A stretch of 64,000 nucleotides of DNA, filler included, from Sphacelaria rigidula (Eukaryota): NCBI GenBank assembly GCA_964200075.2. It is 9 parts of 9 records of this genome, joined end to end, with 100 filler letters (N's around TTAATTAATTAA, not from the genome) between each part and the next. Parts side by side here need not be neighbours in the genome. Positions count along the whole stretch, not along the records: positions 28,492 to 35,513 come from CAXNAA020016915.1; positions 35,614 to 42,635 come from CAXNAA020016916.1; positions 42,736 to 49,757 come from CAXNAA020016917.1; 6 more parts are not named here. One strand, 5' to 3'. Both the position numbers and the translations under genes were made by a program. Below, piece after piece: positions 28,492-59,287 of this stretch (the stretch's first letter is position 1; each line of letters begins with the position of its first letter). The notes beneath the pieces were generated by a model, which was not told the DNA's origin, did not search any database, and worked only from the letters and a program-made list of their open reading frames with translations.

Positions 28492-28589
28492 TCACTTAAA
28501 GCGAATGATCAAAGCCACTCTCAATCGTATCATCTACTCTCAATCTCACAACAACATTGTTAACTATACAGAGATATATACTGTGCAAA

Positions 28590-28830
28590 AGGACCTTTTC
28601 GCCTCGATATCGGGGCGAAAAAGGGGACCTTTTTTAGCCCGAAATTGGTGCTTTCGCATATACACTTGGGGAGAACGGAAGACGGGCAACCCCCGACAAG
28701 AGTTTTAATGAGGTTGGGGGGCATGAGGTTGTCTATATGAAATTCATTGGTCATGACTTCATGTCAGAGAAAGCATTGTTTTCGAGTTAAAACTCATCAT
28801 ATGTTGAACCTCAAAATCGGATCCAGGCTC
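28590..28830. mobile_element. Half copy of fold-back MITE family 2
   Basis: Matches 33201-33622; ends GGATCCAGGCTC-TTA. Confidence 0.75.
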
Positions 28831-29100
28831 TTATTATTGGGTGGAAATTGGGTTCGAAATTCGTAACTTCGATCTCGGAACAACCTGATGGGCGCTGATT
28901 GGTTGATATACCTTTTCGCCCTTGGCGCTACCACTATGGCCTTACACACAAATCCGGCTATTTCACGCTCTTCACCTATCCATGGCGATCAGTATGATAT
29001 CATGCATGCGACTATTATTGGGTAGGTATTGCGAAAGACATTTGCTGATGACACAATTTTGGGTGATCAGCGTGAACCAGCCTGTAGTAGTTAGACCGCC

Positions 29101-29298
29101 TGTAACGCGTGAGAGGATCGCGTGCTTAGAGCACCGCGCCGTGGTTCAAAACACCTCAGGATCGACGTTTTTCAAACCCAATCGGGCCAGTCCCTGCACG
29201 CCCCTGACCATAACCCTGACACCAACCCTAACCCTAACCATAGGGATGTTGAAATTTTGATGCAGTCTTCTGAGCACGCGGTCCTCTCACGCATTTTA
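29101..29298 (-). mobile_element. Telomere-repeat mini-element
   Basis: TIR TGTAA.GCGTGAGAGGA.CGCGTGCTTAGAG; internal CCCTAA tract; CCGCC on both flanks. Confidence 0.88.
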
Positions 29299-29389
29299 CC
29301 GCCCACTACTGGACCTCATGCTCTCCTCTTGTGCAACAAAAGCATATCCCGTGCGGTCACAGCCGGAGAAGAAGGGGAGTAGGGGGGTC

Positions 29390-29468
29390 TGTAATGCGTG
29401 AGAGGACCGCGTGCTTAGAGGACCGCATCGGAATTTGAACATCCCCATGGTTAGGGTTAGGGTTAGGA
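29390..29468 (+). mobile_element. Telomere-repeat mini-element, truncated in the TTAGGG tract
   Basis: Left TIR plus (TTAGGG)n only. Confidence 0.85.
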
Positions 29469-30122
29469 TGCTTGAGAGCTTCATGAACCTTCTTCGTAAT
29501 GAAATGATGACATGAGAGCAGGCTACAACAAACAGCTGTAGTGGAGGCCATAGCAAACCCTAGCGACTACAATAGCGACACCGCCGGACCACGCTGTGCT
29601 AGCTGCGACATAAACGTGTTGCTTCTTTTTCGGCAATGTGCCTTCGACTTGACTCACGTTTGTTTTGTGTCATGACATCACGACTTGTTTGGTTAACACT
29701 CAGCAGCGCCTCCTGCATCTCGCTCCCCTGACTTTTCCCTCGCGTCTATTTCCCCTGATCGAACTACGTATTTCCATTAATAATGCCGTTCTTCAGGGCC
29801 TCAGCTCTCTAGACGATCTTCGCCATCGTCAAAAAGGACTCAACAGACACTATCCCAGCACGTATGAGGGCGACAACTGCATCAGTTCTGCTTCTGGCTC
29901 TTTGCCTTGAACAAGGCACGTAGTAGGCAGAAGGGTCTCGCTATGATAGGGGGGGGATTTAGGGCCGTTTTCTCTCACAAGTATTCCTCTTGTGATCGCC
30001 ACTGATAGCAGCGACGGTTGTTCGAACGTGCTTATTTCCGATTAATAAGGCTCATTCACACTACTTGACATCGTCTTTACCCAAATACAAGCGCACCGCT
30101 AGTAGGCCATTTGCCGAGAGGG

Positions 30123-30330
30123 TGTAATGCATGAGAGGACCGCGTGCTGAGAGGACCGCATCGGAGTTTGAACATCCCTATGGTTAGGGTTAGGGTTAAG
30201 CTTAGTGTGTGTTAGGGTTGTGGTCAGGGGCGTGGTTTCTGCAGGGACTGGCTCGATTGGTTTTGAAAACGTCGATCCTGAGGTGTTTCGGACAATGATG
30301 CGGTCCTCTACGCACGCGGTCCTCTCATAC
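30123..30330 (+). mobile_element. Telomere-repeat mini-element
   Basis: Colinear with the other copies; right TIR eroded. Confidence 0.85.
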
Positions 30331-30434
30331 TCAAGCACTTTACTGCGGACAGCTCCCTCTCCGGCAACGTGGTAAATGAAAATTGATTGTGGAACGTCAT
30401 CTCTCGTATAGCTGGGGGGCAACGGAGTGATGCC

Positions 30435-30645
30435 TGTGATGCGTGAGAGGACCGCGTGCTTAGAGGACCGCATCGGAATTTGAACATCCTTATGGTTAGG
30501 GTTAGGGTCAGGGTTAGTGTTAAGGTCAGAATCAGGGGCGTGGTACCTGCAGGGACTGGCGCGATTGGTCTCGAAAGACATCGATCCGGAGGTGTTTTGA
30601 TCCACGGCGTGGCCCTCTAAGCACGCGGGCCTCTTATGCACTACA
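30435..30645 (+). mobile_element. Telomere-repeat mini-element
   Basis: Both TIRs; flanks ATGCC/ATGCT. Confidence 0.88.
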
Positions 30646-31214
30646 ATGCTTTTCTCTGTTAGTATTTCCCCTCTTTTACCCGTCCCTTCTCATACTCTGT
30701 CGGTTAGCTGAATCCCAATGATTAAACCTGAAACGTGGGTGAAGGTTCTTCTGCTCATACTGGGTCATACGTTTTTGGCGCATGTTGCACACATCTGATA
30801 CCGTGCCGGCAAGTCTACATAATCCGCTTGGAAAATATGTTCATAAAAGTGTGATCCAATCCTCTGCTCTAGTGTGATGAAATACAAAATATATGTGAGG
30901 TGCTACTTGTGGGCTTATCATGTGAACCCATTTTCTATGAGATGATCTACACGTGTTGCGTCGTGTACGGGTGTCACCCTAGGGCTACACTAGTGCAAAG
31001 AGAGGTACCTACTATAGAAAGGGTAGAACCCGGTCGACCTGGAACGTCGATGCCCCAGGTTTTTCGAAAGATGGTGGAGTCCTCGATACTGCAGGTGCTC
31101 TGGAATTCTCAGTACTTTCGATACCCGCGGTACATTGAAACACCCAAGATATATATATATATATATATATATTTAAGAGTTTCGAGAGTCTGCAGCCTGG
31201 TGTGGGGAAGATGC

Positions 31215-31402
31215 TGTAATGCCTGAGAGGACCGCATCGGAAGTTGAACACCCCCATATGGTTAGGATTAGGGTTAGTGTTGGGGTTGGGGTCAGGGGCG
31301 TGGTCTCTGCAGGGACTGGCCCGATTGGTTAAAAACGTCGACCCTGAGGTGTTTTGGACTACGATGCGGTCCTCTAAGCATGCGGTCCTCTCACGGATTA
31401 CA
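31215..31402 (+). mobile_element. Telomere-repeat mini-element
   Basis: Both ends present; one AGAGGACCGC unit deleted on the left. Confidence 0.85.
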
Positions 31403-31548
31403 GGAGGTGCATGCACACGCCAGACCGAACGTTCTGAGTTCGTTTCGGCTATATTATATCGCTCTGCCACCCGACCTGAGCACGTTCCGGTACGACCATG
31501 CGTCCCGCACCCGCACCTCGGGTCTTTTAGGTATAGTGCGGTCCATAG

Positions 31549-31773
31549 CGGAGTCCACCTGCAGCGACGGAACTGAGGGCGTGGAAGGATTCGACATGTG
31601 TTGCGTGAGCGACTGCGGAGAATGCGGCGGCGCGGGTTGTAGGACGCGGGCCGAGGAAGCGGGACTCACAGCCCACGACTGCTGCAGCGGGAGGATCGAG
31701 GAAGCAGGGGTTTACTGTGACGACTCCGGAACAGCACCGTGCATACTCAGCGGCGGTGGGAGTAGTTACAGCG
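31549..31773 (+). CDS. Symmetric phase-1 exon encoding a Cys-rich extracellular module
   Basis: TCSDGTEGVEGFDMCCVSDCGECGGAGCRTR...DCCSGRI...CDDSGTAPCIL; CCATAG acceptor, G|GTAAGC donor, 225 nt. Confidence 0.85.
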
Positions 31774-32800
31774 GTAAGCGTCGGATACTGTATGTTCCGG
31801 ATGTATAGTACTTCAATCAACAGGAATAATACTCCACCTCGGTGTCTACAGGAGTTTTTTTCTTCGTGATTTTTCGGGGGGCTGCGCAGGAACACATGCC
31901 GGACACCTGGACCCCGAGGATCAAATTTTGGAGTTTTTTAGGGGGAGGGGGGGGGCGTACTCATTTCTTGCTTGCCTTAGTCGTTTGACCATTGACCACG
32001 CATCCCTTTCGAGACGGAGCAGGGGGGGGGATGCCCAGCATTCTGTCCCCTAGTTTACGGCGCTGTTGGATGCGGTCAGCTGCCGTGTGCAGAGATCCTT
32101 GGCATGGAGACCACTGAGGTGGTGGACACGCCGCCCTCCCCAAGCTCATCAATTATCATGATTACCTCTGTGGGATCATGCTCTCCGTGTCGTGTGCTTC
32201 GAGTACCAGCAAGTTATCCGGGCGGGTTCGGCGAGGCGTGAGATAATGTTGTTACTTTGGCTACCGGCTGTCGCTGTTCGTACCGTGCGCTCGTTTAAAA
32301 TATGCGAGTGAAGGTGGCCGGCATCAGAGGTCATCGGTAATACTGTGTTCGTGAGATTTAGAGTGTAACATTGGATTCAGAGTGAAACCCGAAACAATTG
32401 ACTTTCCCATCGAATTTGACATCCCCACAGTTCGAGGAGTCATGCGCCCAGCTAGTGAAGCGGTGACTTCAACGAAAGCTTTCACCGACACGATCGATTT
32501 GATTCATCACTTGATCGCAACGACGTGGTCAGTCCATTGCAACAAAAGATCCCCTCTTTCAGGAAAAATCAATTAGTACCCGAAACAGTTTCAGTTCCGA
32601 AATGCCTCCCCAAGCGTGAAGATGCCTTGTGCGGTATCTCACCAACCAGATCGCCGAATTCCTCTAATTGGGTACTGTATGGTAGCTGTATGCACAAGAC
32701 GTGTGCTCACGCGAAAAAAAACAAAATGCCTGTAAGGAACGCTAGAGCACCCATTGTGAATCCGATATTACGCTGTGAATCTCACGAATATGTTGTTCGG

Positions 32801-32988
32801 TGTGATACGTGAGAGGAGCGCTTGCTTAGAGGAGGACCGCATCGGAATTCAAACATCCCTATGATTCAGGTTAGGGTCAGGGGCGTGGTCCCTGCAGGAA
32901 CTGGCCCGATTGGTTTCGAAAAATGTCATTCTGAGGTGTTTCGAACTACGATGCGGTCCTCGAAGCCCCGGTCCTCTCACGCAGTACA
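32801..32988 (+). mobile_element. Telomere-repeat mini-element (diverged, short tract)
   Basis: Colinear with the family. Confidence 0.8.
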
Positions 32989-33200
32989 GAAGCAACGATA
33001 CAAACTCCGCAAAATCCACCAGACTTTCCGGTTCCTGTCAGTGCTATTCGATCGAGTTTTTTTGCGACAAAATAAACGAACAAAAATAATGGCGACTCTC
33101 GGCAAAATGCCCTCTGAAGGGGGGGGGTGGGGGGGGGGTTCGTGTCCGAAAATCTTCTCCGTGGAGTCCACTCAATATTCCCATATTTTGACCAAAAAAA

Positions 33201-33622
33201 GGGCCTGGATCCGTTTTTGAGGTTCAACATTATTTTATGAGTTTCAACTCGAAAACAGTGCTTTTCCTGACCTGAAGTCATGACCAATGAATTTCATGTA
33301 GACGACCTCATGCCCTCCGACCTCATTAAAAATTCTTTCGGGGGTTGCCCGTCTTCCGTGCCCTCAAAGTGTATATGCGAAAGCACCAATTTCGGGCTAC
33401 AAACGTCCCCTTTCTCGCCCCGATATCGAGGCGAAAAGGTGCTTTCGTACATACGCTTTGGGGGCGCGGAAGACGGGCAACCCCCGAAAATAGTTGTAAG
33501 GAGGTCGGGGGGCATGAGGTCGTCCATGTGAAATTCATTGGTCATGACTTCCGGTCAGGGAAAGCACTTTTTTCGAATTGAAACTCATTGAAGTGTTGAA
33601 CCTCAAAAACGGATCCAGGCTG
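33201..33622. mobile_element. Fold-back MITE family 2 (~420-bp palindrome)
   Basis: Arms GGGCCTGGATCCGTTTTTGAGGTTCAAC... pair over ~190 bp; G(G/A)GCC termini suggest Tourist/PIF. Confidence 0.85.
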
Positions 33623-33827
33623 TTGAAATGTTATGTGGCAGAGTGCTCTGTCATGAACTCTTTTTCTGCCGGACATAGAGTGGAGGTTTTGCGGCTGTTG
33701 GCGTCGCAGTTGAAGATTCGCAAGCGTAATAGCGCCGTCGATGGACTGTTGCGCACATTGTATTGCTTCGTCATTATTTTCGTCCATCATTGGCAATCTG
33801 ACCAAGACAACATCCCACCTTGATCTA

Positions 33828-34533
33828 CCTTGGGGGCTCTCAGTAGTGCCGGTTGAATAGTGCCAACGACCTATATAATGCCGGTGAAATCTCCGGGCAC
33901 AGCCAGATCTTGCAGTGGTACCGGTTTGAACGGTTTTGTACCCTTAACAGTGCCGGTTCCGGACACACTCACGCACGCCTTATCACCCACCAACCAAGCA
34001 CCAGTAGGGGTACAGCAGGGTACGTGCTGGTGCAGACCTCGCAACGTAGGGACACAACATGCCTTGTGCGGAGGGTGACCTGTGCCTGGTGCAGGCCACG
34101 ACGCCAGAAAGCCGTCATGGGCACGGTTGCCAGGGCACATGTGGCGGGTGGCTCCACGGTATTTGCGGCAGCATGTTCGGCGACAACGAAATGCACCGCA
34201 TCTGCAGCAAGTGCCTTCTCAATCAAGTTGAATGTGAAAAACTAAACAACATCGGGTTTAGTTCTGCTACCCCGAAATCATACGTGACATATCCTATCAA
34301 AACCACTTGAAGCAAAGGTCCTCGTCCGTTTTGTGCTTCTGTTGGTCCCACGAAGAGCAAGCGTAGCAGTGTCCGAACGGACGGTCGTCAGTAGTGCCAG
34401 AACCGACACTACTGAGGTATTCAGAGCACCCAATTGCACCTGCTTTGGCACTTTTCAGAGCAGTGCCGGGCTTTCTGAGTAGTGCCGGTTTCCGTGGTGG
34501 GCACATACCGGCACTACTGAGAGTCCCCCACTG
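33828..34533 (+). mobile_element. pogo-like non-autonomous element carrying a Cys/His-finger remnant
   Basis: TA-flanked TIR ~CAGTGGGGGACTCTCAGTAGTGCCGG; repeated AGTAGTGCCGG subterminal motifs; internal CAEGDLC...HGHGCQGTCGGWLHGICG...RICSKC at 34059-34215. Confidence 0.75.
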
Positions 34534-34576
34534 TATTTCGAAATCTCTACTCAATGTAACTTGGACGCCAGTATGG

Positions 34577-34788
34577 TGTAATGTGCGAGAGGACCGCGTG
34601 CTTAGAGGACCGCATCGGAAATTGAACATCCCTATGTTTAGTGTTAGGGTTGGGGTTAGTGTGAGGGTTATCGTCAAGGGCTTGGTACCTGCAGGGACTG
34701 GCCCAATTGGTCTTGAAAACCGTCGATCCTGAGGCGTTTTTGAACTACAGCGCGGTCCTCTAAGCACGCGGTCTTCTCTCACATTACG
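34577..34788 (+). mobile_element. Telomere-repeat mini-element
   Basis: Both TIRs, degenerate TTAGGG tract. Confidence 0.88.
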
Positions 34789-34965
34789 CCCACAACACCT
34801 ATCAGGGGATTCTATAAAATGAGGTTGATCAATCAAATGAGGTTTGAGGAGGCTGGCCAGTATGCGACAAAAACCCGAGGGCAGTACCGTCCGCAAGTGC
34901 CTTTGATCACTTTCGGGGGTGGGAGGGCATACTCCTTTGTTGCTTGCCTTAGTCGTTTGACTATT

Positions 34966-35176
34966 TGTAATGCGTGAGGGGACCGCGTCCTTAGAGGACC
35001 GCATCTGAGTTTGAACATCCCCAGGGTTAGGGTTAGGGTTAGGGTTGGGGTTGGGTTAATGGTCAGGGGCGTGGTACCTGCAGGGACTGGCCCGATTGGT
35101 TTTGAAAAACATCGATCCTCAGGTGTTCTGAACTACGGTGCGGTCCTCTACGCACGCGGTCCTCACACGCATTACA
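34966..35176 (+). mobile_element. Telomere-repeat mini-element with perfect 5-bp TSD
   Basis: CTATT on both sides; splits a G-run repeat whose uninterrupted paralogs carry the 5-mer once. Confidence 0.92.
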
Positions 35177-35435
35177 CTATTGACCTTTCGCGACGGGGCG
35201 TGGATAGATGGTTTCATCCTTTAAATTATTTGGAGAGTGCCTTGACGGAGTCGACCCTATGATAGAGGGATCAGATGTGGAGTGCGCTCAGGTGGCAGCA
35301 ATAGCAGCCGGCCTGAGCGTGGTACTGTAGTCACACACACTTGACTACCAGTACCCGTGCGTCAGCATAGATATATCCGCGCATGTACATGTTTACTCAG
35401 TGTACCCGTTCACATGAACACCCCCTCTGAGTCGG

Positions 35436-35513
35436 TGTAATGCGTGAGAGGACCGCGTGCTTAGAGGACCGCATCGGAATTTGAACATCCCCATGATCAG
35501 GGTTAGGGGTGGG
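35436..35513 (+). mobile_element. Telomere-repeat mini-element cut by contig end
   Basis: Left TIR and start of the tract. Confidence 0.85.
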
Positions 35514-35613
35514 NNNNNNNNNNNNNNNNNNNNNNNNNNNNNNNNNNNNNNNNNNNNTTAATTAATTAANNNNNNNNNNNNNNNNNNNNNNNNNNNNNNN
35601 NNNNNNNNNNNNN
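35514..35613. other. Artificial contig linker
   Basis: Same 100-bp spacer. Confidence 0.98.
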
Positions 35614-36006
35614 ATGGTCTTATGACTATGGCAAGCATGATCATGAGTACACCCCCCCTTCCCCCCCCCGCGACACCCCTTATATTTAGGTATCACGGGT
35701 TGGATCATGACTATTTATATTTAGGTATCGCGGGTTGGATCATGACTATCACTTCTACTCCCGCAACTGCGTCGACTGTCGTTGTATATATATTCCTTTG
35801 CGACTGAGTTCCTGACGTTTTCAACGGCGGGAATCATATAATTTTTAGAGAGAAACCCAAATTAATCTGCCGGGAATCGAATCCGCAATTTTCCACCCCA
35901 CCAAGTCTCAAGTGTGCCGGTTACTCTATCGAGGCGCGGTGGCGAATAGTAGTACGTACACATAGATACACATATCGTCAAGAAAAACAACGGTTCAAGC
36001 ACTCAC

Positions 36007-36703
36007 GTTCGCTTTCCCTGCGCTCTCGCGACCGCACCAGCCCCCGTCTCTGTTGTTTCTTTTTCGATAGCGGCCGCCTTTACCTTTGCCCCTGCGGCAG
36101 CGGCTGCCTTCACCTTTGCGGCAGCGGCTGCCTTCGCCTTTGCGTCTGCGGCAGCCGCAGCCGCCTCGAGTTTTTTCTTCCGATATATCTTGCGCTCAGC
36201 GCGCGTCCCGCCGACGCCGGGATCGTATCCGGTAAAGTCGATCTCGAATTCAAAGTTGAAATCTTCGTCCGGTCGAGTGCGTTTACCCGTCCTCCGATTC
36301 TGGGTGGCTGACTGCTTTATGCTTGGATTGTGGTTGTGGCGACCGCTGCAAGTGGTATTGTCTTTGCCGTCGTTGTTGCCCAATACGTCACATTCCCCTG
36401 GTGATGTGTCGATTTCGCCCGCTTTCGTGGAGTTTGTTGTTGCTTGCGCCGGCATCACTCTTTCTCCTGGCAGTCCAGTCGATGTTGTTGTCCCCTTGAC
36501 GAAAGGTGTAGAAGCTCTGGCGGTAACATTGTCTAATGAGGTTCTTGCTACCTTTGATGGAGGGTGATCGATACCTTGAGTGGTGACGATACCACCCATC
36601 ATTGAGGCACTTGTAGCTCCGGCCTTTTCGTAGTCTTTCGCCTCCATTTTCGCTATAACAGCTGCGCGCTGATTTCGCCGTTAATATTGGTTTTTTGAAG
36701 CCC
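36007..36703 (-). CDS. Exon of an unknown low-complexity, Lys/Ala-rich protein
   Basis: Open frame >214 codons, acceptor TTGTGCTGCAG, donor GTGAGT. Confidence 0.65.
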
Positions 36704-37603
36704 CTGCAGCACAAAATACACGTGACGGTGATGATGACAAAGTGACCACCTTATCATCGTTGTTGCCCCGGTTGGATTTGTGGCTGCGTATAGTGAGGTC
36801 CCCACTTTACGGCGGAAATGTGCAATGGGAAACGGATCGCATTCCACGACTCAGCCTTGAAAAGGGTTGGGCCCTATTGACCGGACGACTATTGGCGCGA
36901 GTCAATTTTCATCGCTATAAAAGAGGACTCGCCGTTGAAAGCCTTGAAACGGGGACACTGTATTACACGAAGGTAGCAACAAAGCTTTGACGGTGATCAT
37001 CGCCGAAAATTACCCCTAGGTTTCCTTTGTTCTTGTAAGCGTGCCCACGCACGCGCGCGCATAGTGCACACGAAAGCAGACTCGATAACCATCTGCTGCA
37101 GGAAGGTGCCACGCCGTGGTGCACGGGAATAAGTAATGTGCGGCCTAATTCTTCTTAATTTCTTTCTGGGTCAACTCTGTCTGCTTTTCATTTCTGTTTC
37201 CTCCACTTTTCTTCAGCTAGTATTTCCGCTTTTTTTTTCATCTCAGGTACGTCCATCATGTGACCACGGCTGGACGCCTGGGGGATCAGTAAAAGTGTGA
37301 CAATCAATCAATCAATCAACCAATCGGAGGCACCCAATTTAAATCTTGTCGCTAGCTGCCTGTGCAGGCATGGTAGGGGTTGCACATTTGACCTAAAATT
37401 ATTCTCTTTCAGGGTCTACTAACGATAGGAGCTGGACAAGAGTATGGGTCAGGACACTTTCGTTTTCGAATTTAATCGGGATATCCCCAGCCCATTGAAA
37501 TGCTAATCGTGGCGTACTCTCACATATTCTTGAGGTCGTTTTTCTGATGAGATAGAGGACTCTCAGCAAATCCAACCTCGGGAAATATTTGTGCACCTCT
37601 ACC

Positions 37604-37859
37604 GACTATCCCGCGATAGCCCCCCCCCCCCAGAAAAAAAAGTCGCTGGTTCGAGGAGGTAGAATCTTCGTGTAAATCAAGCTGACAAAAACCGAGTATA
37701 CCGAGTAGCTGGGAACGCCCACGCTTGGAATTGGTTTCGCCAATTTCACCTATATCAGGCGCTTCGTGCAGTGTAAAACCAGCTATCATGTGCTGTATGG
37801 TCATCTCCTTCGTCACAGTTTCGGGGCTGGTTTGAGGGAGACCTATCGCGGTATCACTT
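37604..37859. mobile_element. ~255-bp TIR element with 4-bp TSD (Sola-like), subfamily 2
   Basis: GACTATCCCGCGATAGCCCCC terminus, TACC on both flanks; left-end fragment also at ~38899-38975. Confidence 0.6.
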
Positions 37860-38216
37860 TACCGTAGCATCACTTATCAATATGTCTTGTGTCAAACGAG
37901 TATTTCACTCACGACAGTTGCAGCGAGTCGAAATCGACAGTTCTGATTTCCAAATATGTCGCATTTGCGTGATGGTGCGGCGGGTTTGAAGCGGTCATGC
38001 CAAGCGATCGTGTTCCTTCACCTGTTGAGGAGAGAACCTACACGATAGCGGTAGGAAACTCATCTCCACTACCGCGATCTTCCTGGAGAAGACATGGCGC
38101 GTGTGTGTATCTACGGGTACTGGAAACAGGTTATATTGAGTAGATTGATACACCACAAGTATCGAATGATAGCGAGAGCATCGTGAGGAGTCGCAATAAC
38201 TATCCGTAGAAAAAAG

Positions 38217-38836
38217 CTGGCTGGCCACCACTAGCTATGACACCAAAGCGTGAACCACTGTCCGGTGATGACGCCGGCGTTTCTTCGCTGTCCAGATTGC
38301 GAACTTGTACGCTATCCCGCACTGTTACACATCCATGTGTTGCCGCTACTTTCGAGTCATTCGAGATCATCTCGCACTCACTCGGCGGGAAAATTCTACG
38401 CTCTCTCTCGAGTGTGTGCTTCCCTGTGGTCCTCGCCGAGCGGGAAAGGTTCCCCCTCTACTCGTATGGTCAAGGAGGACCTTTCACGCTCAGCGGGGAC
38501 TACAGGAGGGTATAAATTCGGGAGAGAGCGAGGAAACTTCCCATCAAGTGAGTGCAAGATGACCTCGAATGGTTCGAGCGCAGTCTTTGGCCAAAGAGGG
38601 CATTTTCCACTCGGCGAGGACTATAGGGATGCGTACATTCGGGAGGGAGAGCAAGGAAGCTTTCCCGTCAAATGAGTGTAAGATGATCTCGAATGGCTGG
38701 AGCGTATAGTGACAACACATGAACATGTAAAATTGTGAGGTAGCGTACAAGTTTGCAAGCCGGACAGGGCAGAGACGCCAGCGGCATCACCGGACAGTGT
38801 TTTACACTTCGGTGTCATAGCCAGTGCCAGCCAGTA
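38217..38836. mobile_element. ~600-bp fold-back element
   Basis: Arms CACT(A/G)GCTATGACACC...CACTGTCCGGTGATG pair over ~170 bp; internal ~120-bp duplication. Confidence 0.75.
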
Positions 38837-39875
38837 ACCTTATTTCTACTAGTAGCCAGTGCGATTCCTTACGATTTTCTCGCCATCATATATGTGGTGA
38901 CTGATGTCGCGATAGCCCCCCCCCCCCCCCCCCAGAAAAGTGGCTGGTTCGAGGAGGCAAAATCTCCATGTCAATTATATAAAGAGGTTGGCGCAGAAAC
39001 CCAGGCATCATAGAAAAAACCTTCGCTGACAGTCTCTAGATAGAAAGTTGAACACTTGCGTGTTGTTCACACGTCCGCTACAATCACCCATCTACGGTGC
39101 TTACCTCTACCTCGCTAACAACTTGACCTACCTCAGCTGACGGTGGCGCTGTTGTCCATGTATACAAGTGGATATGCTGGTAGAATTAAGTATCCTTTTA
39201 GGAAGGGCCTTTTGCGATCGATGAACCCGTGTACCGCTGGTGGCAATGGTATGATCGATGAGCGTTGTGTTGCTTCGGCTTGGATGTGAATATAATCGAT
39301 AAGTGAATAGACAGGTGCAGAATGCGGTTACGAACTGAGGGAGATTCGGATCGAGCTCGACCAAATTGCTCCGCCTCATCTCTACATCGAAGCATTCCAT
39401 TGGTCACAGTCTCGCCGCAATCAGTCAATCAATCAATCAGTCTCGCCGCATCTTGTTTGAGGAGCCCTGGAGACATGTCAAATACTGTTGTAGCATGCAA
39501 TATTCAAAAACCTTCTTCGCAAACAACTAAAAAATGCATACACTGCGGCTAGTGAGTATGCTAGTACATTTTGTGCTCGCGTGGAGATCATCCGAGTCTT
39601 GACAACGTAGCTGGAGTTTCGGTCTGGGGTAGAGATAGGGTGATGATATTGAGGTACACAGCGGTCGATCACCGCATGATTTGGCCAGAGCGTTTCGAAC
39701 CACGTCAAGATCACACAATCGGTCATTATTCGAGTACTGTAATTCATACAAAAATGCTTGCAACCGCGGGTCTGAAGGTCTGAACTGGTATGATGGGCGA
39801 GACATCTTTGCTTGTGTGACCAGCACCACGGCCGTTGGCGAGGCCAAGCTGTCAAGGTTCACATACACGACGGAG

Positions 39876-40071
39876 ATGACAACCCTGTACGATGATTTCG
39901 AGACGGTAGTGGTCTCTGAGTCTAAAGCAACGCCACATGTTCTTCATGTGGAGATCAACAGGCCCTCGAAGAGAAATGCCATGAATGCCAAGTTTTGGGT
40001 TGAATTTCGCGAGTGCTTCGAGAGGATAGCGGAGGATTCTGATGCGCGTGTGGTGATCGTCTCAGGAGCAG
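39876..40071 (+). CDS. ECH1: Delta(3,5)-Delta(2,4)-dienoyl-CoA isomerase / enoyl-CoA hydratase family, first exon
   Basis: HVLHVEINRPSKRNAMNAKFWVEFRECFERIAEDSDARVVIVSGAG, crotonase N-terminus; donor G|GTACAG. Confidence 0.85.
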
Positions 40072-42148
40072 GTACAGCATTTACTCATTTGTCTTGTCGG
40101 TCCTGTCACACTTAGTGGGTGGAATCTGCTTTGGTTGTGTTGTCTACATGCTGTGGAGTGCAAATGAGAGAACGCACAGCGCCGTGCGGATTGAACGCTG
40201 CAACGTTTCAACGTTTGATTGCACTTGGTTGAACTACAAGAACAGCATGCACATGTACTTGAATACATACTGTTGTTGTACAAGTACTGTCTCCGTCCGC
40301 GGTCCGTGCCCGTGTCGGAGACCCTTGGTTTGGCGCATAAGAGTCGCCGAGATGAACGCCACAATCCGCCTTGGTTGATAAGACGGCAACAGGTCGAGCA
40401 CAACATCAGGGGGTGAACGCCTGATAACTGTCCACACCAGTGACGGTTACCATGTGTTGATAGAAATACATGAGGACAACATGATCTTCCCTGGTTCGGA
40501 AAATCAAAACGGCATGCTCCAGGAGGCGATCGAGCCGCAGGTGCCGATTTCGACAAAATCACGTTCTGGACGAGCTGGGTCCACTGCTCACCTGCCCCAA
40601 ACCATAATTTTTTTCACAGCTTTCTCAAGTCTAAAATCAAGTAGTGATACGGTCAGCCATAGATATACGCCCAAAGCTATAGCCCTGCGCCAAAAGAAAA
40701 AAAAACAATTATTTCGGACTATAATTGGAGCTCTTTTCATCCCCTCGCGCACTGCTGCAACGCCCAACCCCAGATCTAGACGCATGGACTTGTTGGTTGT
40801 CATCTACATGAGATGTCAGCACAGTTTCAGGGCATGGAAGCGACGACAGCGCGCGCATGACCGTGCCTCCTGCCCTGAGCATCTCTACAGTCGATACCGG
40901 AATGGGTTTGTTACAGATTGTCATTATCCACAGGCGGCGGCAGACATGATTCATGTTCGTTTGCGAGTACTTCAGCCTCCCAGGTGGTCACGATGCGGAA
41001 GTGAGTGCGCTTCCACGCCCACATGTGCATTCACTCACGTTACACAGCATCTCGGCCGCCAGGTAATCGTTTTGAAGGCATACAGACGGTATTGCCCAAA
41101 AGTAGAATTCGCTTCGTTTAATTTGCTCGGGGAAGGCAAGTGACTGTGCTCCGGTACATACACTGGGTGTGGTGTGCCCGACTGGTGCACCGAGTTTCAC
41201 GCTGGTGCCTGCAGCGGCGGTCGAAAACTTAACAATAAAAAATGAAGTGCAAAAGTCGAAATGTCACCGGTCAAGCGTGGAAAGATACACCAGCTGCAGT
41301 TACGCCGCATAATCCTCGTACGACAACATACTGCATCCGTAACCGCTGCGCCCCTGCGGCAGCACAGAAGAAATGAGGACAAGCGCACAACCGTACTCGC
41401 CAGCACTGCGGATTTGGCTTCGCCACATCACCCGCCAACCGATATGTCTTCAATCATGTCGGCATCAGCAGGGCATCTAGTGTTGTGTTCTTAGAATCAA
41501 TGCTCTACACGATTGCACTGCCGAGCACGGTAGAGACAGTAGCTTTGTACACCAGTCAAACATCAAAAAAAGGGATGCAGCGCATCACACGTTTTCATAC
41601 TACTGTAATTTATGTGAAGTTTTCAGTGTTGGAGGCGGCGCAATTGGCTGTACAAGGCATGCATGCACAAAAGTGTGTCGTGTTACTTGCTCGTTTAAGC
41701 AAATTACCTACTTTTTTTTCATGTGGATTGAATACACCATGCACTAGCCGAAGCGCGTTCTCTTGGCCTGGTGCCCTGAGCGTGTTCGCCACCTATCGGC
41801 GTTGCATTGTGTACGAGATGCACCAATGAAGAGCACCTCTATTCAGACCACCCCCCGCGGGAAATCATCACTTTCTCAGCCAAAAATCTACACCGACGAT
41901 CCCGCCTTGAGCAAAGCTTGCCACCGATTCCACGCGCTGGGCCGATATTCCTTTGTGTGGGGCCCGCCGCTCGTGTGAACTGTGTCTACTTCACAGTTGA
42001 TATCAGCCGAATGCTTGTCAAATGGTTCTTCTATGCGGGCATTCCGGTACTCGATTGTTTTTATTTTACTTTGGCGCAGGACTGTACTGCGTTCCAGTGC
42101 ACGATGCATGTTCAACGTGGGTGCAGCGATCGCTGAAATCAAATTTCC

Positions 42149-42529
42149 AAGTTGTGTTGTGTAGGGTACCATTTTTGTATACCCCGGGTATTTACTATAC
42201 TCGGGTATTTTACACGTGCTCGACAATTCTGTGAATTCAGTACGCCTCTCGTACCTTTGCCCGACAGCTATGTGAGTTCTGTAAGCCTCCCATATCGGTA
42301 CCCGATAGTTGTGTGAAACCTGCACGAAACTCTCACCTTCTGCCGGGGCACGGGTATGCCTTTAGGGAGAGATTCGATTGCGGGTAAGGGTTTATGTACA
42401 ACCTCCATATCGTATCCGACAGGTTCTGTAAGTTCCGCAAGACGTGCGAACCGGTACCCGACATTTGTCTGAGCTCTGTAAGAATTTCATACCCCACCGA
42501 ACATACCTCTACCCTACAGAACACAACTT
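42149..42529. mobile_element. ~380-bp TIR element with internal GTACCCGA/TTCTGTAAG subrepeats
   Basis: 20-bp TIR AAGTTGTGTT(G/C)TGTAGGGTA at both ends. Confidence 0.7.
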
Positions 42530-42635
42530 CGGATGACAAATTCTACGATAGCCCGCCCCCCCGCAAAAATGGAAATCGTTTGATGCACTAGACAGTAGGG
42601 AGACAACGATGGCTATAGGGGATAGGTGGTGGCCA

Positions 42636-42735
42636 NNNNNNNNNNNNNNNNNNNNNNNNNNNNNNNNNNNNNNNNNNNNTTAATTAATTAANNNNNNNNN
42701 NNNNNNNNNNNNNNNNNNNNNNNNNNNNNNNNNNN
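42636..42735. other. Artificial contig linker
   Basis: Same 100-bp spacer. Confidence 0.98.
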
Positions 42736-42943
42736 AAGTGCACGGAGGCGATGATCATAAATGCCGTCAGAGCTGGTTTTGTGCTGTACGACGCGACTCA
42801 TTTGGGCGTTATAGCTGATTTCGGAATGCTGCACGCCTCCATGTGGGCGAAGTTGCTGCAATCGAGCCCAATAGTGGGATCGCAGCCGGTTTGTCGGGCG
42901 ATCTCCGGTGCACTTTTTGTGGGGGGGCTCTCTCGGTATTAGT
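42736..42943 (+). mobile_element. Sola-like MITE subfamily 1, cut by contig start
   Basis: Colinear with 54496-54745. Confidence 0.8.
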
Positions 42944-43301
42944 CATTCAATGAAGAAAACTACGAAGGTGCTGATATGTCCAGCGCATCATACGCAGTCA
43001 TTCGCTGGTTGAAAATCGGTAGAAGACCGCAAATCATCGTCACACAGAGTCAGATGCCGAGTATCTAGGAGCAGCAGCCGCCGCCCACCAACGCGCGGCG
43101 TTTGCCAACAAAAAGATGTATACGGGGCCAGCAACAACAATCGATTAACAGAGCAGTATCGAGTTACACCAAGGTTTTGAGCCATGTACAGATAGTACAT
43201 ACTCACATACTAGCGCGCACAACATACACACGTGCGGACGCGGAACACTTCTACAAGCGCCGCGTCACCCGTTTCGTAATATTTCCTTCTCAAGAGCTCA
43301 C

Positions 43302-43543
43302 TTCATCGCATTGTCCGCACCGCTGCCGGACGACGGTGCCCAGAACCGGTGGGTTGCATGGAGGTTTTGGAGGACCTCTTCGATCCTCGGGTCGAACGCT
43401 AGCTTTTTTATGTGGGCAAGCGACCACCCGTCTTTCGGCGTTCTCCTGTTGCCGTGCTTCATGTCGTTTTCCCCCGAAGCCAGCCACAACAGCACCGCTG
43501 TGATCACAAGCACAAACCATGGTATACCGAACGATCGGCCCAT
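43302..43543 (-). CDS. Possible first exon of a secreted or membrane protein
   Basis: MGRSFGIPWFVLVITAVLLWLASG signal-peptide-like start, donor AA|GTGAGC; no recognisable family. Confidence 0.45.
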
Positions 43544-43799
43544 GGTTGACACCTTCCACCTGCGTGAGGTGCAATCGAAACGTATGCACAGTGAACTTGA
43601 ATGTAGATATCGACGGGGTTGATTTATTGGTTCGCTACAGAAGAAGGGCGTGCAGCTCCTCCGAGACACCGCGTCTTGTAGTCCTATCCGTGCACAATGA
43701 TGTACCGGTTGAAGAGGGCTAACATCACTGAAACCCAACGCAGGCAGTGTTCATGCTGTAGGGAGACGTGCGAACCGTCACCTCCGCACATTTGATTTG

Positions 43800-44754
43800 C
43801 AGTAGCTCACATCTGAAATAGGAGATTTTCGCAGTTTGTTCTGTATAGTCGGGAATATTCGAAAGTGTTTTCGCGTGCCACCGTTTATCCCCGTGAACGT
43901 TTCATTCCAATGTTTGGGGATTGGGAGATACTTGGCATCCCCTTCATTTTCCGAAATTAGATCACATCTGCGTTTATCATTTGAACGACTTACGGGCTGA
44001 CCGTTATTCGGGGGTTGTGAGACTACTCAGGCCCGGGTTCTGACCCTTATTGAGTATTCCTGCTCATTTGATTGAAAACACTCCAATCATTGTCGTGAAG
44101 AAACGAATTTTCATTCTTTTCAAGCTATATCTATATTTTTTGGGCCAGAGCCGAGATCTGTGTTTCCTGGACCAGTGACGATCGATAACATCCCGTGAGG
44201 AACAAGGTACTTACTCCATATCACCCCAACAACACCAATGGAGGATTGTGCTCTGAGCACAACCTGCTTCTCGTCTCAATATCTATCGACGCTAGGACGT
44301 TTGAGCCCCAAGGACGGATACTACGCGAGAAAATTCAGCAAAACACTCAAGGACATATTCAGGAAAATACCCAAAAACGACAAGTGCCCAACCGAGCTCT
44401 GCATATCACAGGCGGGAGTGAACCAGTTCCGATCACTCTCATGGATGGTTCTACGAACGTTCATTATTTTACACTATTTGTACCCATTCATCACCTGGAG
44501 CCGAAAGAAGCACGTTTTGGAACAAAAAGTGTCAATAACACCCCTGTCCATGAAGCTCGGAAGTCGTTCAATATTGAGCGCAAAGACGATGTTTTTTTCG
44601 GAATGTGGAGCGGATGCCCAGTATCTCCGGACTTTCCAACGTTGGCATCAACCGCTAGCCAGCATCAGCGGTGGCACGCGAGATAACCGTTGAATATCGC
44701 CGACCACGAAAACAGTACACAAATCTCCCACAACATTTCAGATGAAAACTACTG
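43800..44754. mobile_element. Complete pogo-like non-autonomous element (~955 bp)
   Basis: CAGTAGCTCACATCTGAAA at left, TTTCAGATGAAAACTACTG-TA at right. Confidence 0.8.
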
Positions 44755-46016
44755 TATACTAAAAATAGACACCATACGGAAGGTTTCTTCTACGCAGCTG
44801 TTTGTTCTCGACAACGTTGTCGATGGGAAGCACCGCCGGTACACTAAAAAGCACGAAATGTGCGACGAGAGCAAACCTCTCTCTCCTGCAAACGACACTG
44901 TCAAGGTCGCGCAGACGATATTGTACTCTCCCATGAAACACTGAGGGCTTTGAGTTGCTGCTTATAGGAGACGCAGCCGACCGCTAATCTTGCATGGAGC
45001 CAGCAAGCGCACACAGCACGGGTGGATGCGCTCAAGCGTGAAATTCGAACCGTGCTGTATATCGACGCAACCAACCCTAGCCCACCGCATAGTTAGAGGC
45101 AGCATGCCCCTTCCTTCCTTGCTACTGTAAGGACAAGCTGTGGTCTTTCATTTGTAATCCAAATAGGTCCCATGCATCGTCACCTACTGTGTACACTTGA
45201 GTATTTCACTTCAAGAATAGATTTAGAGAAGAAGTCCTCCATTTTTTCGGAGCTCCAAATACGGCCAACAGCAGTATTATTATTATCGAGTGCTGCAGTT
45301 GCTGTTAGATATCTAATCGCGGACATGGGGCTGATTTCATTGTTGGCCTGCCTTCGCCGGCAAAATGGAGGACAGAATGATGCTGCCTGCCCCTGTATGG
45401 CGTTCCAAACTACGCTCAACATGTTCCTTGCAACCTCTGTCAAACGGGGGAGCAGTCGGAAAGGCAAGGGCGTGATCGAGCGGCCATCCCGGAAGCGGCA
45501 CACACAAAAAATAAAGATACCGACTGTGGAAGGCTCAGTGCAAAGTTTACAGCACGCCTGCTTTCTGTCAGTTTTATGCGCAGATACATACACCCACCAC
45601 ACCACCAGCTATAGACTTTGCAGGCGGTGCGATGGCATACACTCGCAGCAGCACTGCAGGCAAATAGGTTGCTGTTGGATTGTTTCTTCTCTTTACTTCG
45701 AAAGTGCGTATTTCCGCAAAAGGCGACCACCTTACTTGAACCCAACAGCTCAACATCTGCTGCCGACGCACACACCGTCTAAGAAGATGGACACCGCTAA
45801 CCCACGGTGCTTATATCACTATGCGACATGGCCCAGGTGGTCACTAGCAAGGTTGCTGCTGACTCCGCACGCTTACGAGCGCCACGGCGAGCTCACAGGG
45901 CAGCTCTGCAAAGTTTTGCGCTGCAATCCGAAGTGTTCAAATTTGTCCCAAAGTTGAGTTTCGGAGAAAAGATTAGGCCGCTTCATTCTCGGAGAACGCT
46001 GAACGTCGGGTGTTAA

Positions 46017-46110
46017 CCCTTAGACCGCGAGGTTAGTCTTCTGTTGAATCGGCATCAAATTCAAGTGGAAGTATGCATGATCCAGAAAGACTAATCTCGC
46101 GGTCTAAGGG
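46017..46110. mobile_element. 94-bp piggyBac-like MITE, isolated copy
   Basis: TTAA-CCCTTAGACCGCGAG...CTCGCGGTCTAAGGG-TTGA. Confidence 0.85.
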
Positions 46111-47396
46111 TTGAAACGCCATAACATTTCAGGGATATCGGATGAAACAGTGTGTCGATAAGTAGTGATAATGAGCCTTACAGGGAAGACACAACGAGCC
46201 AACACAGTGAACGCGGTGCAATCTATCTGAGAGATCGCATGTAGATTTGACACATGATAAACTTGAAGTAACGCCGGCAACAAGGGTCACAAGAATATAC
46301 CAAGACCAACTTGATAGCAGCAGCTCCTCACGCACGAAGTCAAAACCGGCACCTGCACAATCGGAGGCACCCAACACTCGAACACGGATTATTGGGTAGG
46401 TGCAGTAGTATTGACGGAGGGCAAACACAACCACACACACCGCTGCAAACACCTCAGCCGCTGTTGCAGCCGATGCAATTCGACCAACCAACCGTCTTGT
46501 CGCCTGTCGCCCGCACCCATATCGGGGGGCGCTACAAGAAGATCATCCTGTGCAACGAAAAGGGCATACAGGCGAGCGCAGAATCAAGCGCGCCGCCCCT
46601 GGTTCGGGCGCCACGCAACGATAGAGCCGATCCAATGCTATTCACAACAAGCCACGTACTGAATCAAACGACGAACACCCAACGAAGCATCCCAAACGGT
46701 ACGGTATGCCGCGAGAAGGGAAGACTGCTCGTGTTGGGAAGTATATACGTGATCGGCTGCTGTTACCAGACCCAAGCCGAGATTTCCAACACCATCCATC
46801 CCCATACGGAAATGGGATAGCTTACCTGATGCGGGGTGAACAAGTTTCTGTACTGTGTTTGCAATGCAGTCTTGTATGTGAGCCGGGCGTCTTGATGGTT
46901 GTGAATGGGGAGAGACGGTGGCAGCTTTATCAATACGAAAAGCAGTACAGTAGCTTGAGTCGATTTGGTGATCGATGTGCGGTGAAATTGGGAAGTGAAA
47001 CGGTGAGAGGTGCCTCCTCACATCACGAAACACGAGAACGCCTCACCTGCCTCAACGAATAAACATAATAATAAAATAAAAAAAGCCCTGGACAAATGAA
47101 GAACGCAAGAACTCCTCAACACATACCCGCAAAGCTGTTATTTATCATTACTCCGGAGTATATTTGATCGAGTAAACACACGACCAACTCCTCGCTGTCA
47201 TCACCTGGTTATGGGTAGAACTCATCAAATACAGCGGGGGGAAATAGACCAATCAAAATCGTGGAAACGTCAAAGATATTCTTCACCAGGGTTGCATGTC
47301 GGACCGAGAGTAAAGTTCGATAGATATTCTTAGGATATCGAACCACAACCGCTGATACCGATGTTGTTGTCGATATTCCGAAAATGACACGGTGCG

Positions 47397-47487
47397 TATC
47401 GAGTATCGAGTATCGAGTATCGAGTATCGAGTATCGAGTATCGAGTATCGAGTATCGAGTATCGAGTATCGAGTATCGAGTATCGAG
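47397..47487. repeat. (TATCGAG)13 perfect tandem repeat
   Basis: Counted directly. Confidence 0.95.
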
Positions 47488-48254
47488 TATCGATATGCGA
47501 TACGATACGGCTGTTTGGTATGGCCGCAGTGTACAAAAAACCGAGCAGTACACTGGCACACTGACACCTTTACTCACTACTGTAGTTCGCTTAAGATACC
47601 TCATCCCCTCGACAGATTTTCACTGACTCCTCACCAGAAGCGATGTCAGGGCTTAACCAGGCGGCGTTGCAACTATCTAGTCCAGAGAAATTAATCGAGC
47701 TTTGGAAATCGCTCCTGAGGGTGTGGTATCTCAAGCAACCTACGGTAGTTTCCAGTAGACAGCAGTGGACACATGATGTACAGCAGCGGGTACAGTGCAA
47801 ATTGACATCATAGCAGCGGCGGCATGCGGTGATACAGCTGTCTTGCGAATATATCTTTCGTCGTGCAAGAAGAGGTAGTTGATCACAGCGGGCCGGGTGT
47901 GGTATTGATGATACTGTTTTCATTTCTACGGTCACCATTCCGTGTGTTTCCATCGAGTGAGCGCATACCTCGACTCTGCACATTCATTAGAAAAGGAAGA
48001 GGTTTCAAACCTCGAACATGCATAAACTCAAATGCGAGCTCTTTTTTTCAACGTTCTTCAATGCCAATGACAGGAAACGTCGGCAGCACGCGTAAAGTTT
48101 TAATTTCGAATTCCAAAAACATATATGTTTGTACGTCACCAACCAAGAAGAAAAAACACTAAACTCGAAACAATTAGAATGTCCAGACTAATGGATGGAG
48201 GGGAAAATAAACCCAACACTCGTCAAACATGAAAGAAAGGCAAAGCGACAGTAC

Positions 48255-48465
48255 TGTAATGCGTGAGAGGACCGCGTGCTTACAGGACCGCATCGGCATT
48301 TGAACACCCCTATGGTGAGGGTTAGGGTTAGCGTTAGTGTTGGGGTTAGGGTCAGGGGCGTGGTATCTGCAGGGACTGACCCGATTGGTTTTGGAAAACG
48401 TCGATCCTGAGATATTTTTAACTACGGCGCGGTCCTCTAAGCACGCGGTCCTCTCACGCATTACA
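48255..48465 (+). mobile_element. Telomere-repeat mini-element on a different contig
   Basis: Near-perfect 37-bp TIRs TGTAATGCGTGAGAGGACCGCGTGCTTA(G/C)AGGACCGC. Confidence 0.92.
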
Positions 48466-48744
48466 TAACCATGTCCTCATTCTCCGAAGGACAGCTGTTT
48501 TCTACTGTTATCTGCAGCTCTGCATTGATGGTGACCTCATATCTACTCCGCCACGCCACCCATATGTTGCCGTTGGTGAACACCCCCGCGGGATCATATC
48601 ACTAAACCCTAAACCCACGAGGTGTCAGCGGTGTGTGGTGTGTGAAGGGGACCTTGTGGAGTGAGGGATGGGGGGAGCAGGGTTTCACATCCACCGGGGG
48701 TCTGCCGTTCGAGAACTGCCACCGCCCCTGCGTTTACTGTGACG

Positions 48745-48932
48745 ACGGTTTCGAGAAATTGAGCTAATGTGACGAAAAATAGACAAAAATATCGAGCGTA
48801 TCGATATTCGATATTGATATTCGATATTGATACATATCATATATATCGGTTTTCTACGCTCCGATATCGATATGGCATATCGCCGATATTTGTCGAAATC
48901 GTATCGATTTTGGTATCCAATGTGCAACCGTG
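48745..48932. repeat. ATCGATA-rich element with hAT-like end
   Basis: Many CGATAT/ATCGAT motifs; end TGCAACCGTG resembles the complement of CAGGGTTGCA at 47287. Confidence 0.45.
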
Positions 48933-49757
48933 TTCTTCACATCCCCAGCCTGTCTCATCTCCGTAGATTTAATTACTCATCATGATATCTATCGGGCACT
49001 GATTCAACTATCTCCATGATTTCGCGTTGTAATCCAGCTCTGGGATACTTGAGAACGACCCGGCGTCTGATACATCAACTAGAGACCATAAGTAGCGAGG
49101 TTCGTCTGCTGCTGAGCCGTTCCATCCGACTCGTGTACATACGAGTCATGAACCCCGCCGAGGTGACGACGTTGAGTTGTTACTGCTGCAACAGCGGCTT
49201 GGACGTACTGCTATCATCATCGACAGGCTGGTTCAGTCAGGGTGAATGCTCAAAACAACCAATTCCCCACTAAGATACAGAACGCAAAACTGGCCCGCTA
49301 GAAACGTATTTGGCGTCATAGTGCGACCCCCACGAGCAAGCTCACTGTGTGTGACATGCAGTAGCCAGTATTTTCTTGTCTTGCGCGACCCTTCTTTCTT
49401 TGCTGTGGTCTATAGCGGAAATGCTCCTCGGCCAATATCGCAGGGGGAGTCTTCAAATTGTTCTGAACTTGAAAATGAATGCGAATTTCCGACACAGTTT
49501 GTACCCAAGCTTATGAATTTAAACTTAGTAACCGTAGGCTTCGTATGCGCATTTTGTTTCGTCAAATTCAGTTCCGTTTTGTCTTTTTTACAAGCTTCCC
49601 CCGTCCACATTTTAACCCTTTTGGGACCAGGCCTCCAGAACGACCAATGAGGCTGGTCAGGAACGACGTGTCTGGCGTCTAAACGAAACAGTGGCGTGTT
49701 GCTGAAAATCCGCATATGTAACTGCAGGGTTATGACGAAGACCGAAAGTTTCATCTA

Positions 49758-54460: not shown

Positions 54461-54495
54461 GTAACGTAGGTTTGGAATGTTTCAAACGAATATTA

Positions 54496-59283: not shown

Positions 59284-59287
59284 GTGA

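Follow-up and report, generated by a model that had tools for sequence, protein, structure and literature searches.

Results

Ten copies of a short element with inverted ends

We analysed a stretch of 64,000 bases from the brown alga Sphacelaria rigidula (assembly GCA_964200075.2), hereafter the window, which is a composite of nine pieces, each ∼7,022 bp long, with a 100-bp linker (44 N, TTAATTAATTAA, 44 N) at each of the eight joins. It holds ten copies of a short dispersed element with inverted ends and an internal tract of telomere-type hexamers, as detected over the whole window by blastn, alignment and an nhmmer profile. The unit measures 187–212 bp in the eight copies that are neither truncated nor cut. 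Nine of the ten copies lie in the fifth piece (28492–35513). A preliminary description of this DNA had presented 29101–48465 as a single locus; this span crosses two linkers and can no longer be regarded as one. Nor are the joined pieces neighbours in the genome, since the copy cut at 35513 (c9, below) has no continuation past the linker.

Both ends are kept in seven of the ten copies. One of the seven, c1 (29101–29298, 198 bp), is the only copy on the minus strand; the others are c4 (30435–30645, 211 bp), c5 (31215–31402), c6 (32801–32988), c7 (34577–34788, 212 bp), c8 (34966–35176, 211 bp) and c10 (48255–48465), all on the plus strand. The last of these is the sole copy outside piece 5 and the best preserved of all, at a distance of 6.2% from the majority sequence. 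Exactly 16 bp are lost from c5, between the two direct motif copies of its 5′ terminal repeat, and c6, the most divergent copy, carries a 28-bp deletion in the hexamer tract. The three exceptions, likewise on the plus strand, are c2, c3 and c9. Whereas c3 (30123–30331) misses the last ∼8 bp of its 3′ terminal repeat and c9 (35436–35513, 78 bp) simply stops where its piece stops, the linker beginning at 35514, and is hence not really truncated, c2 (29390–29468) is a genuine truncation. It comprises the first ∼79 bp of the element, stops directly behind the hexamer tract and is followed by unrelated sequence; it stands head-to-head with c1, 91 bp apart, and its first 37 bases (29390–29426) agree exactly with the terminal repeat in its majority form. 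An nhmmer search of the window with a profile of the ten copies returned no further copy except for a doubtful fragment at 31039–31100 (+; E 0.0065, 11 bits, profile positions 136–199), which was too weak to be counted as an eleventh.

The ends form a terminal inverted repeat (TIR) of 37 bp, each containing two copies of the motif AGAGGACCGC placed 16 bp apart. A 27-mer of the terminal repeat, with up to three mismatches allowed, matched the window 14 times against an expectation of 0, and all of these matches fell within the ten copies. Together with the agreement of blastn, alignment and profile, this bears out the number of copies and the doubled motif that had been reported previously. Ungapped complementarity of the 37-bp ends was highest in c10 (36/37), followed by c7 (34), c8 (33), c4 (30) and c1 (29), and was lower in the three copies carrying indels. 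[quoted passage not shown] When c10 was folded as DNA, its ends formed a long stem (z = −10). At the 5′ start, seven of the ten copies read TGTAA, two read TGTGA and one, c1, reads TAAAA, while the 3′ end is TTACA or CTACA in five of the seven copies with both ends. Coding capacity is absent, and no Pfam domain occurred in the open reading frames (ORFs) that cross the copies. Searching prokaryotic genomes with a degenerate 23-letter pattern of the element gave four bacterial matches, about the number expected by chance; in one of them, the profile matched over just 25 bp.

Insertion duplicates five bases of the target

A 5-bp target-site duplication (TSD) flanks three of the seven copies with both ends, namely c1 (GGCGG/GGCGG in the orientation of the element, CCGCC on the plus strand; 5/5 positions), c8 (CTATT/CTATT; 5/5) and c4 (ATGCC/ATGCT; 4/5). 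All three pairs of flanks are as the preliminary description had given them, and the chance of at least three out of seven pairs matching at four or more positions is 1.3e-4. The flanks of the remaining four copies match at two (c5, GATGC/GGAGG), one (c6, TTCGG/GAAGC), none (c7) and one (c10, AGTAC/TAACC) of the five positions; the earlier remark that several copies show no TSD is therefore true of four of the seven testable ones.

The mobility of the element can be followed directly at c8, which is inserted in a member of another repeat family. This family is uninterrupted at 72–196, 4613–4744 and 31941–32021, and interrupted by c8 into 34915–34965 and 35177–35200. Three empty paralogues of the insertion site are found on the plus strand, at 31943–32000 and 4621–4680, each with CCATT once (at 31989–31993 in the former), and at 72–130 with TCATT once. 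The empty sites read ...TTTGA-CCATT/TCATT-GACC..., the filled site ...TTTGA-CTATT-(element)-CTATT-GACC.... The presence of the 5-mer only once at the empty sites is direct proof that c8 was inserted with a duplication of 5 bp. Two of these empty paralogues had already been pointed out, around 31985 and 4660, and were located near 31987 and 4660; the third, near 115, is an addition. The interrupted member of the host family also has an 8-bp deletion just past the insertion site. A paralogue of the c1 region at 5748–5818 was uninformative as an empty site because its homology is lost 14 bp before the insertion.

A TA duplication of the Tc1/mariner kind was also considered for c8 and ruled out by the flanks. 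The two bases preceding the element vary among copies (GG, TC, CC, GC, TT, AC) and are thus not part of it, and since c1 is flanked by GGCGG, no TA duplication is present and Tc1/mariner is excluded. In this respect, the element is unlike the 217-bp TcMar-N1_Ec32, a Tc1/mariner MITE of Ectocarpus (PMC12477816). Published duplications of 8 bp in hAT (PMC1131882) and of 3 bp in Harbinger of Ectocarpus (PMC12477816) are also consistent with the previous rejection of hAT and PIF.

Divergence and clustering of the copies

Pairwise identity was 81–89% among the eight copies running past the tract, and the distance from the majority sequence ranged from 2.5 to 10.8% over all ten copies, with a ratio of transitions to transversions of 97:52. 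Under uniform insertion, nine of ten copies would fall in one of nine equal pieces with a probability of ∼2e-7. The copies within piece 5 are nevertheless no closer to one another than to c10, their identities being star-like, and the spacers between them are non-homologous, which argues for nine independent insertions. Segmental duplication was ruled out as the source of the cluster by the unrelated flanks and spacers and by these star-like identities.

A 730-bp inverted match between the regions of c1 and c6 proved misleading, as it is made up of the element and a distinct palindromic repeat, the stretch between the two being non-homologous. This repeat is a MITE-like element of ∼420 bp at 33203–33620 (arms 81% alike), with a partial copy at 28640–28832, and lies ∼270 bp from both c1 and c6.

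The telomere-type tract and its decay

TTAGGG-type hexamers occur in all ten copies at the same place, about positions 63–107 of 211, so that each copy received its tract from a shared origin. The tract comprises about seven degenerate hexamers, of which only one to three per copy are perfect TTAGGG units; the longest perfect run, in c8, is three units. Tandem Repeats Finder reported tracts in five copies (6–7 units, 71–90% match), and variation in tract length is due to indels in four of the eight spanning copies (c1, c3, c5, c6). The preliminary description had placed a variable (TTAGGG)n tract at a fixed internal site; the site is indeed fixed, whereas the tract is for the most part degenerate. 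In the majority sequence, three good TTAGGG units are followed by degenerate ones; the tract of the founder was therefore already partly decayed.

We compared the decay of five regions of the element, counting substitutions against the majority sequence as well as gap cells. Substitutions amounted to 5.1% in the 5′ repeat (19 gap cells), 8.6% in the 22 bp after it (0 gap cells), 10.7% in the tract (39/365; 89 gap cells), 8.9% in the internal part (13 gap cells) and 8.3% in the 3′ repeat (6 gap cells). With the most substitutions and the most gap cells, the tract is the least conserved region. This pattern of decay is what would be expected of a neutral passenger microsatellite, probably simply copied along with the element.

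Searching the window for the TTAGGG dimer TTAGGGTTAGGG with at most one mismatch yielded 26 matches at 14 places, of which 10 belong to this element family and 4 to a second repeat family. The latter, ∼165 bp long, is found at 20785–20861 (+), 62463–62641 (+), 63687–63849 (−) and 61755–61871 (−) and has four to five TTAGGG-like hexamers near one boundary, behind a conserved GCCCGAGGGTTCTCGG motif; two of its copies are the outer arms of a large palindrome (61773–62613). A common origin of the two families was ruled out, their similarity being confined to the tract. No copy of the element lies near the four tracts of the second family, which argues against an insertion directed by such tracts.

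Another telomere-like half motif, AGGGTTAA, is held by a self-palindromic unit of ∼105 bp, which occurs singly or in head-to-tail or head-to-head runs at 46010–46125, 60829–60941, 61580–61688, 61962–62277, 62650–62792 and 63157–63291. In Ectocarpus, TTAGGG is the telomere repeat, and a subtelomeric satellite with three TTAGGG motifs per ∼98-bp monomer has been proposed to provide healing seeds (PMC11541908). The ∼105-bp unit may be related to this satellite.

Genomic setting

Pieces 1–4 of the window extend over 1–7023, 7124–14146, 14247–21269 and 21370–28391, and pieces 5–9 over 28492–35513, 35614–42635, 42736–49757, 49858–56879 and 56980–64000. The linkers between them occupy 7024–7123, 14147–14246, 21270–21369, 28392–28491, 35514–35613, 42636–42735, 49758–49857 and 56880–56979, and an extra gap of 10 N at 3969–3978 is separate from these. 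Several repeat families are common to the pieces, indicating that they come from one genome. The G+C content of the whole window is ∼49%, and about a quarter of it (about 16 kb) matches another part of the window.

A domain search of 351 stop-to-stop ORFs of at least 70 aa identified three exons as the only recognisable gene fragments: one of a DHHC palmitoyltransferase (2216–2554, −), one EXPERA/TMEM97-like (9356–9670, −) and one, the first of its gene, of an enoyl-CoA hydratase/isomerase (39639–40112 or, more narrowly, 39876–40082, +). The EXPERA exon had 20 matches, the best at 98% identity, and the organism-labelled ones were all from brown algae (4/4): Hapterophycus canaliculatus (79%), Scytosiphon promiscuus (78%), Laminaria digitata (74%) and Ascophyllum nodosum (67%), which supports a brown-algal origin, probably near Ectocarpales. 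For the enoyl-CoA hydratase exon, one protein match was obtained, and otherwise only generic bacterial clusters. No RNA family passed the gathering threshold in an Rfam scan of the whole window, the two Rfam matches found in piece 5 at E ≤ 1 were both at chance level, and a tRNA search of the window found none.

Two long low-complexity open frames lack a Pfam domain: one of 806 aa at 22373–24790 (−), for which no relatives were found and which includes a 63-bp tandem repeat of 4.6 copies (24160–24449), and one at 50691–54481 (−). A 68% match between 21422–21908 and 52680–53160 reflects a repeat or gene family shared by pieces 4 and 8. Simple repeats include a perfect array of 14 GTATCGA heptamers (47396–47493), an array of 55 TTA copies (13844–14013), a C-rich run of 56 bases (3896–3951; an 85% match to uninterrupted C) and 33 consecutive C (4045–4077), and many shorter runs of G or C stand beside repeats elsewhere in the window. 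Other dispersed families common to several pieces, some of them palindromic, were seen at 5182–5571, 11007–11490, 58144–58358 and 58836–59123, and at 847–1561, 9995–10744 and 43788–44763.

Discussion

On balance, the copies described here probably are miniature DNA transposons of an old, non-autonomous family that moves by cut-and-paste, bears footprints of integrase type (Ginger2/TDD-like) and carries the hexamer tract as a passenger. Several traits in combination point to a MITE: the ends are inverted and contain doubled motifs, the copies are small and of uniform size and do not code, the duplication has a fixed length and the tree is burst-like. In such a family, the two 10–11-bp motif copies within each 37-bp end would give a transposase provided in trans two sites to bind, and insertion would be carried out by a DDE enzyme of the retroviral-integrase type that duplicates 5 bp of the target. 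The copies would stem from one burst and have decayed since by 6–11% each, and the founder would have held about seven telomere-type hexamers (three good TTAGGG units, the rest degenerate) that were passively copied along. The preliminary description had spoken of an integrase-mobilised non-autonomous element. Our analysis supports an element that is mobile and non-coding, has inverted ends and duplicates 5 bp on insertion; as for the enzyme, the window contains neither an integrase nor an autonomous partner, and we infer its class, along with movement at the DNA level, from the footprints of the element alone.

Such footprints can be compared with those of known groups. TGTNR ends are common to Ginger and most Gypsy long terminal repeats (LTRs), and duplications measure 4 bp in Ginger1 (CCGG) and Ginger2, 5 bp in TDD-4/5 of Dictyostelium, 3–6 bp in LTR elements and 6 bp in Polinton (PMC2836005, PMC10045372), matching the link drawn earlier between TG...CA ends with 4–5-bp TSDs and integrase-type enzymes. 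The ends of the element fit TGTNR...YNACA, and its duplication has the length of that of TDD-4/5 (PMC2836005). MITEs derived from Ginger2 (Ginger2_NA) are known from insects (PMC3845634). In the curated Ectocarpus table, exactly one DNA family duplicates 5 bp, DNA5-N1_Ec32, which its curators annotated as 'possible Ginger?'; among the rows listed, duplications measure 2, 4 (TTAA), 8 or 9 bp in KDZ, MuDR and unclassified DNA families (PMC12477816). Like our element, DNA5-N1_Ec32 is brown-algal and non-autonomous, duplicates 5 bp, has TGT...ACA ends and is not known to have an autonomous partner. It differs in length (502 versus ∼211 bp), in its imperfect inverted repeat of 9 bp versus 37 bp and in its termini (TGTTG–CAACA versus TGTAA), and no telomere-type tract is noted in its entry; the likeness lies in the features that the table gives for it (PMC12477816). 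The element is best read as the same kind of orphan, with what appear to be integrase-type footprints and no enzyme in the window. A literature search, in which subscription journals were thinly covered, found no description of an inverted-repeat element bearing telomere repeats, in brown algae or elsewhere, and short motifs taken from the element did not occur in the text of the PMC12477816 supplements.

Several observations weigh against a Ginger2/TDD-like MITE. The defining trait of Ginger2/TDD elements is an integrase-like transposase (H2C2 zinc finger plus DDE), for which the window has no ORF: the 351 ORFs of the window contain no transposase, integrase or reverse-transcriptase domain, and the 63 kb hold no autonomous partner, neither a long element with the same TIRs that encodes a DDE integrase nor any terminal-repeat match outside the ten short copies. 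Moreover, the Ectocarpus superfamily table has neither Ginger nor Transib (PMC12477816, Table 1), so that a suitable enzyme is not known in the lineage. The well-conserved 37 bp of the repeat are fewer than the 50–180 bp of Ginger2, with weaker inverted similarity running to ∼55–67 bp, and the targets CCGCC, ATGCC and CTATT are unlike the AT-rich RTATAY/TATA, although this comparison involves three sites only and RTATAY is reported for the 4-bp Ginger2 group (PMC2836005). Nine of the ten copies share the same orientation (two-sided p = 0.02), which cut-and-paste transposition does not predict. Furthermore, four of the seven copies lack a duplication, more than would be expected if each site had decayed by point mutation at ∼8%; chimeras without duplications may have arisen by recombination, given how many copies of piece 5 run in the same direction. 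Finally, the length, the TG...CA ends and the 5-bp duplication would suit a brown-algal Copia LTR nearly as well.

We therefore weighed the possibility that the units come from a Copia-type retrotransposon, either as solo LTRs or as the termini of a miniature LTR element, each insertion having been made by the retrotransposon integrase and then reduced to a single LTR by LTR–LTR recombination. This is rather unlikely. Terminal inverted repeats of LTRs are usually under ∼20 bp. A near-perfect inverted repeat of 37 bp, with a doubled motif inside and a weaker similarity further inwards, is not expected in an LTR, even if the Copia LTRs of Ectocarpus range from 191 to 1130 bp and some start with TGT, those of Copia-8, -10 and -11 (205, 220 and 191 bp) come close to the ∼200 bp of the element, and a 5-bp duplication is found in nine of nine Copia families, all among the rows listed (PMC12477816). 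The abundance of Copia (35 families) and Gypsy (32 families) in Ectocarpus, where no Ginger transposase is tabulated (PMC12477816), also favours LTRs, as does a purine-rich run just upstream of c2 (29364–29389). Against them, none of the seven 3′ flanks begins with TGG, as a primer-binding site would, no paired copies were found around a primer-binding site and polypurine tract in the window, and gag, reverse-transcriptase and integrase domains are absent across it. The three copies bearing duplications were each inserted as a single unit, and nine solo LTRs in 7 kb would require nine insertions of several kb, every one of which collapsed later. The direct neighbours c3/c4, c7/c8 and c8/c9 are separated by unrelated spacers, that between c7 and c8 belonging to another repeat family; c3–c4 and c7–c8 were also tried as miniature LTR elements and ruled out, as c8 and c4 carry duplications of their own. 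An improbable alternative, in our estimation, is a MITE of another or undescribed DNA-transposon superfamily with 5-bp duplications, such as the RAG1-like Transib. Transib characteristically duplicates 5 bp, its terminal repeat of ∼38 bp is close to the 37 bp seen here, and it prefers GC-rich targets, of which CCGCC is one (PMC1131882); bases 4–7 of the element end (AATG) are also identical to those of the Transib heptamer. Yet the invariant CAC at positions 1–3 of the Transib end is TGT in the element, and the A-rich nonamer at 30–38 is missing, with a GGACCGC-type sequence in its place (PMC1131882). While the 51 'DNA/Unknown' families of Ectocarpus would leave room for another superfamily, Transib itself does not appear in the superfamily table (PMC12477816).

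A different question is whether the tract is the purpose of the element, kept for binding telomere proteins, as a telomere-healing seed or as a telobox-type site and spread genome-wide. Such a role seems very improbable. It would be in line with TTAGGG being the telomere repeat of Ectocarpus and with the proposal of a healing seed for a satellite with such motifs (PMC11541908), with the confinement of all 14 TTAGGGTTAGGG-type places to two repeat families, with a G-quadruplex-type pattern kept in four of eight copies examined and with c2 breaking off exactly at the tract. However, perfect units number just one to three per copy, the majority sequence itself is degenerate past the third unit, and the tract decays faster than any other region in both substitutions and indels, most of it being gone from c6. 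Neither a telomere array nor a chromosome end is present in the window, and TTAGGG is presumed, from Ectocarpus, to be the telomere motif of the species itself. The earlier proposal that the element disperses telomere seeds or telobox sites thus finds no support beyond the tracts travelling with it, and their decay shows no sign of maintenance. A joint reading, which we consider quite improbable, would make mobile elements the main source of interstitial telomere sequence and have tracts kept in active master copies by recruiting telomere-repeat-binding proteins. Tracts that recruit proteins might hold the integration machinery in place or direct it, and so account for the nine insertions found within 7 kb, or might seed telomere healing at breaks.

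The passenger tract that we favour has counterparts in other mobile elements. Microsatellites or tandem repeats embedded in MITEs have been described from pineapple and, in DTC84, from the clam Donax trunculus (PMC8449440, PMC3879986); these MITEs are likewise short inverted-repeat elements whose internal simple repeat is copied along, the differences being that the unit here is the presumed telomere hexamer of the host and that the superfamilies are not the same. Telomere-type repeats are also carried by the telomere-bearing elements (TBE) of Oxytricha and by telomere-associated Penelope-like elements (10.1101/2025.03.17.643836, PMC4522978). In Penelope-like elements, the telomere repeats are at the 3′ end and part of priming, in contrast to the internal, decayed tract of our element (PMC4522978). 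The ∼98-bp satellite of Ectocarpus similarly embeds telomere motifs in a non-telomeric repeat, but is tandem and confined to chromosome ends, whereas the element is a dispersed transposon (PMC11541908). Position further sets the element apart from Oxytricha TBE, since its tract is internal and not terminal. The two compare as follows: TBE telomere repeats are at the extreme ends, and those of our element begin about 63 bp from its start.

Taken together, the filled and empty sites cleanly prove, at the level of sequence, that 5 bp are duplicated on insertion in an orphan class of small brown-algal elements. If a Ginger/TDD-type integrase were indeed the mobilising enzyme, brown algae would gain a superfamily that has not been shown there so far. 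Beyond the proof of the duplication and the origin of the tracts, the family is an ordinary decayed MITE. The origin of the tracts is relevant because interstitial telomere tracts get read as marks of karyotype change: those found here can arise by transposition and so need not mark a chromosome fusion.

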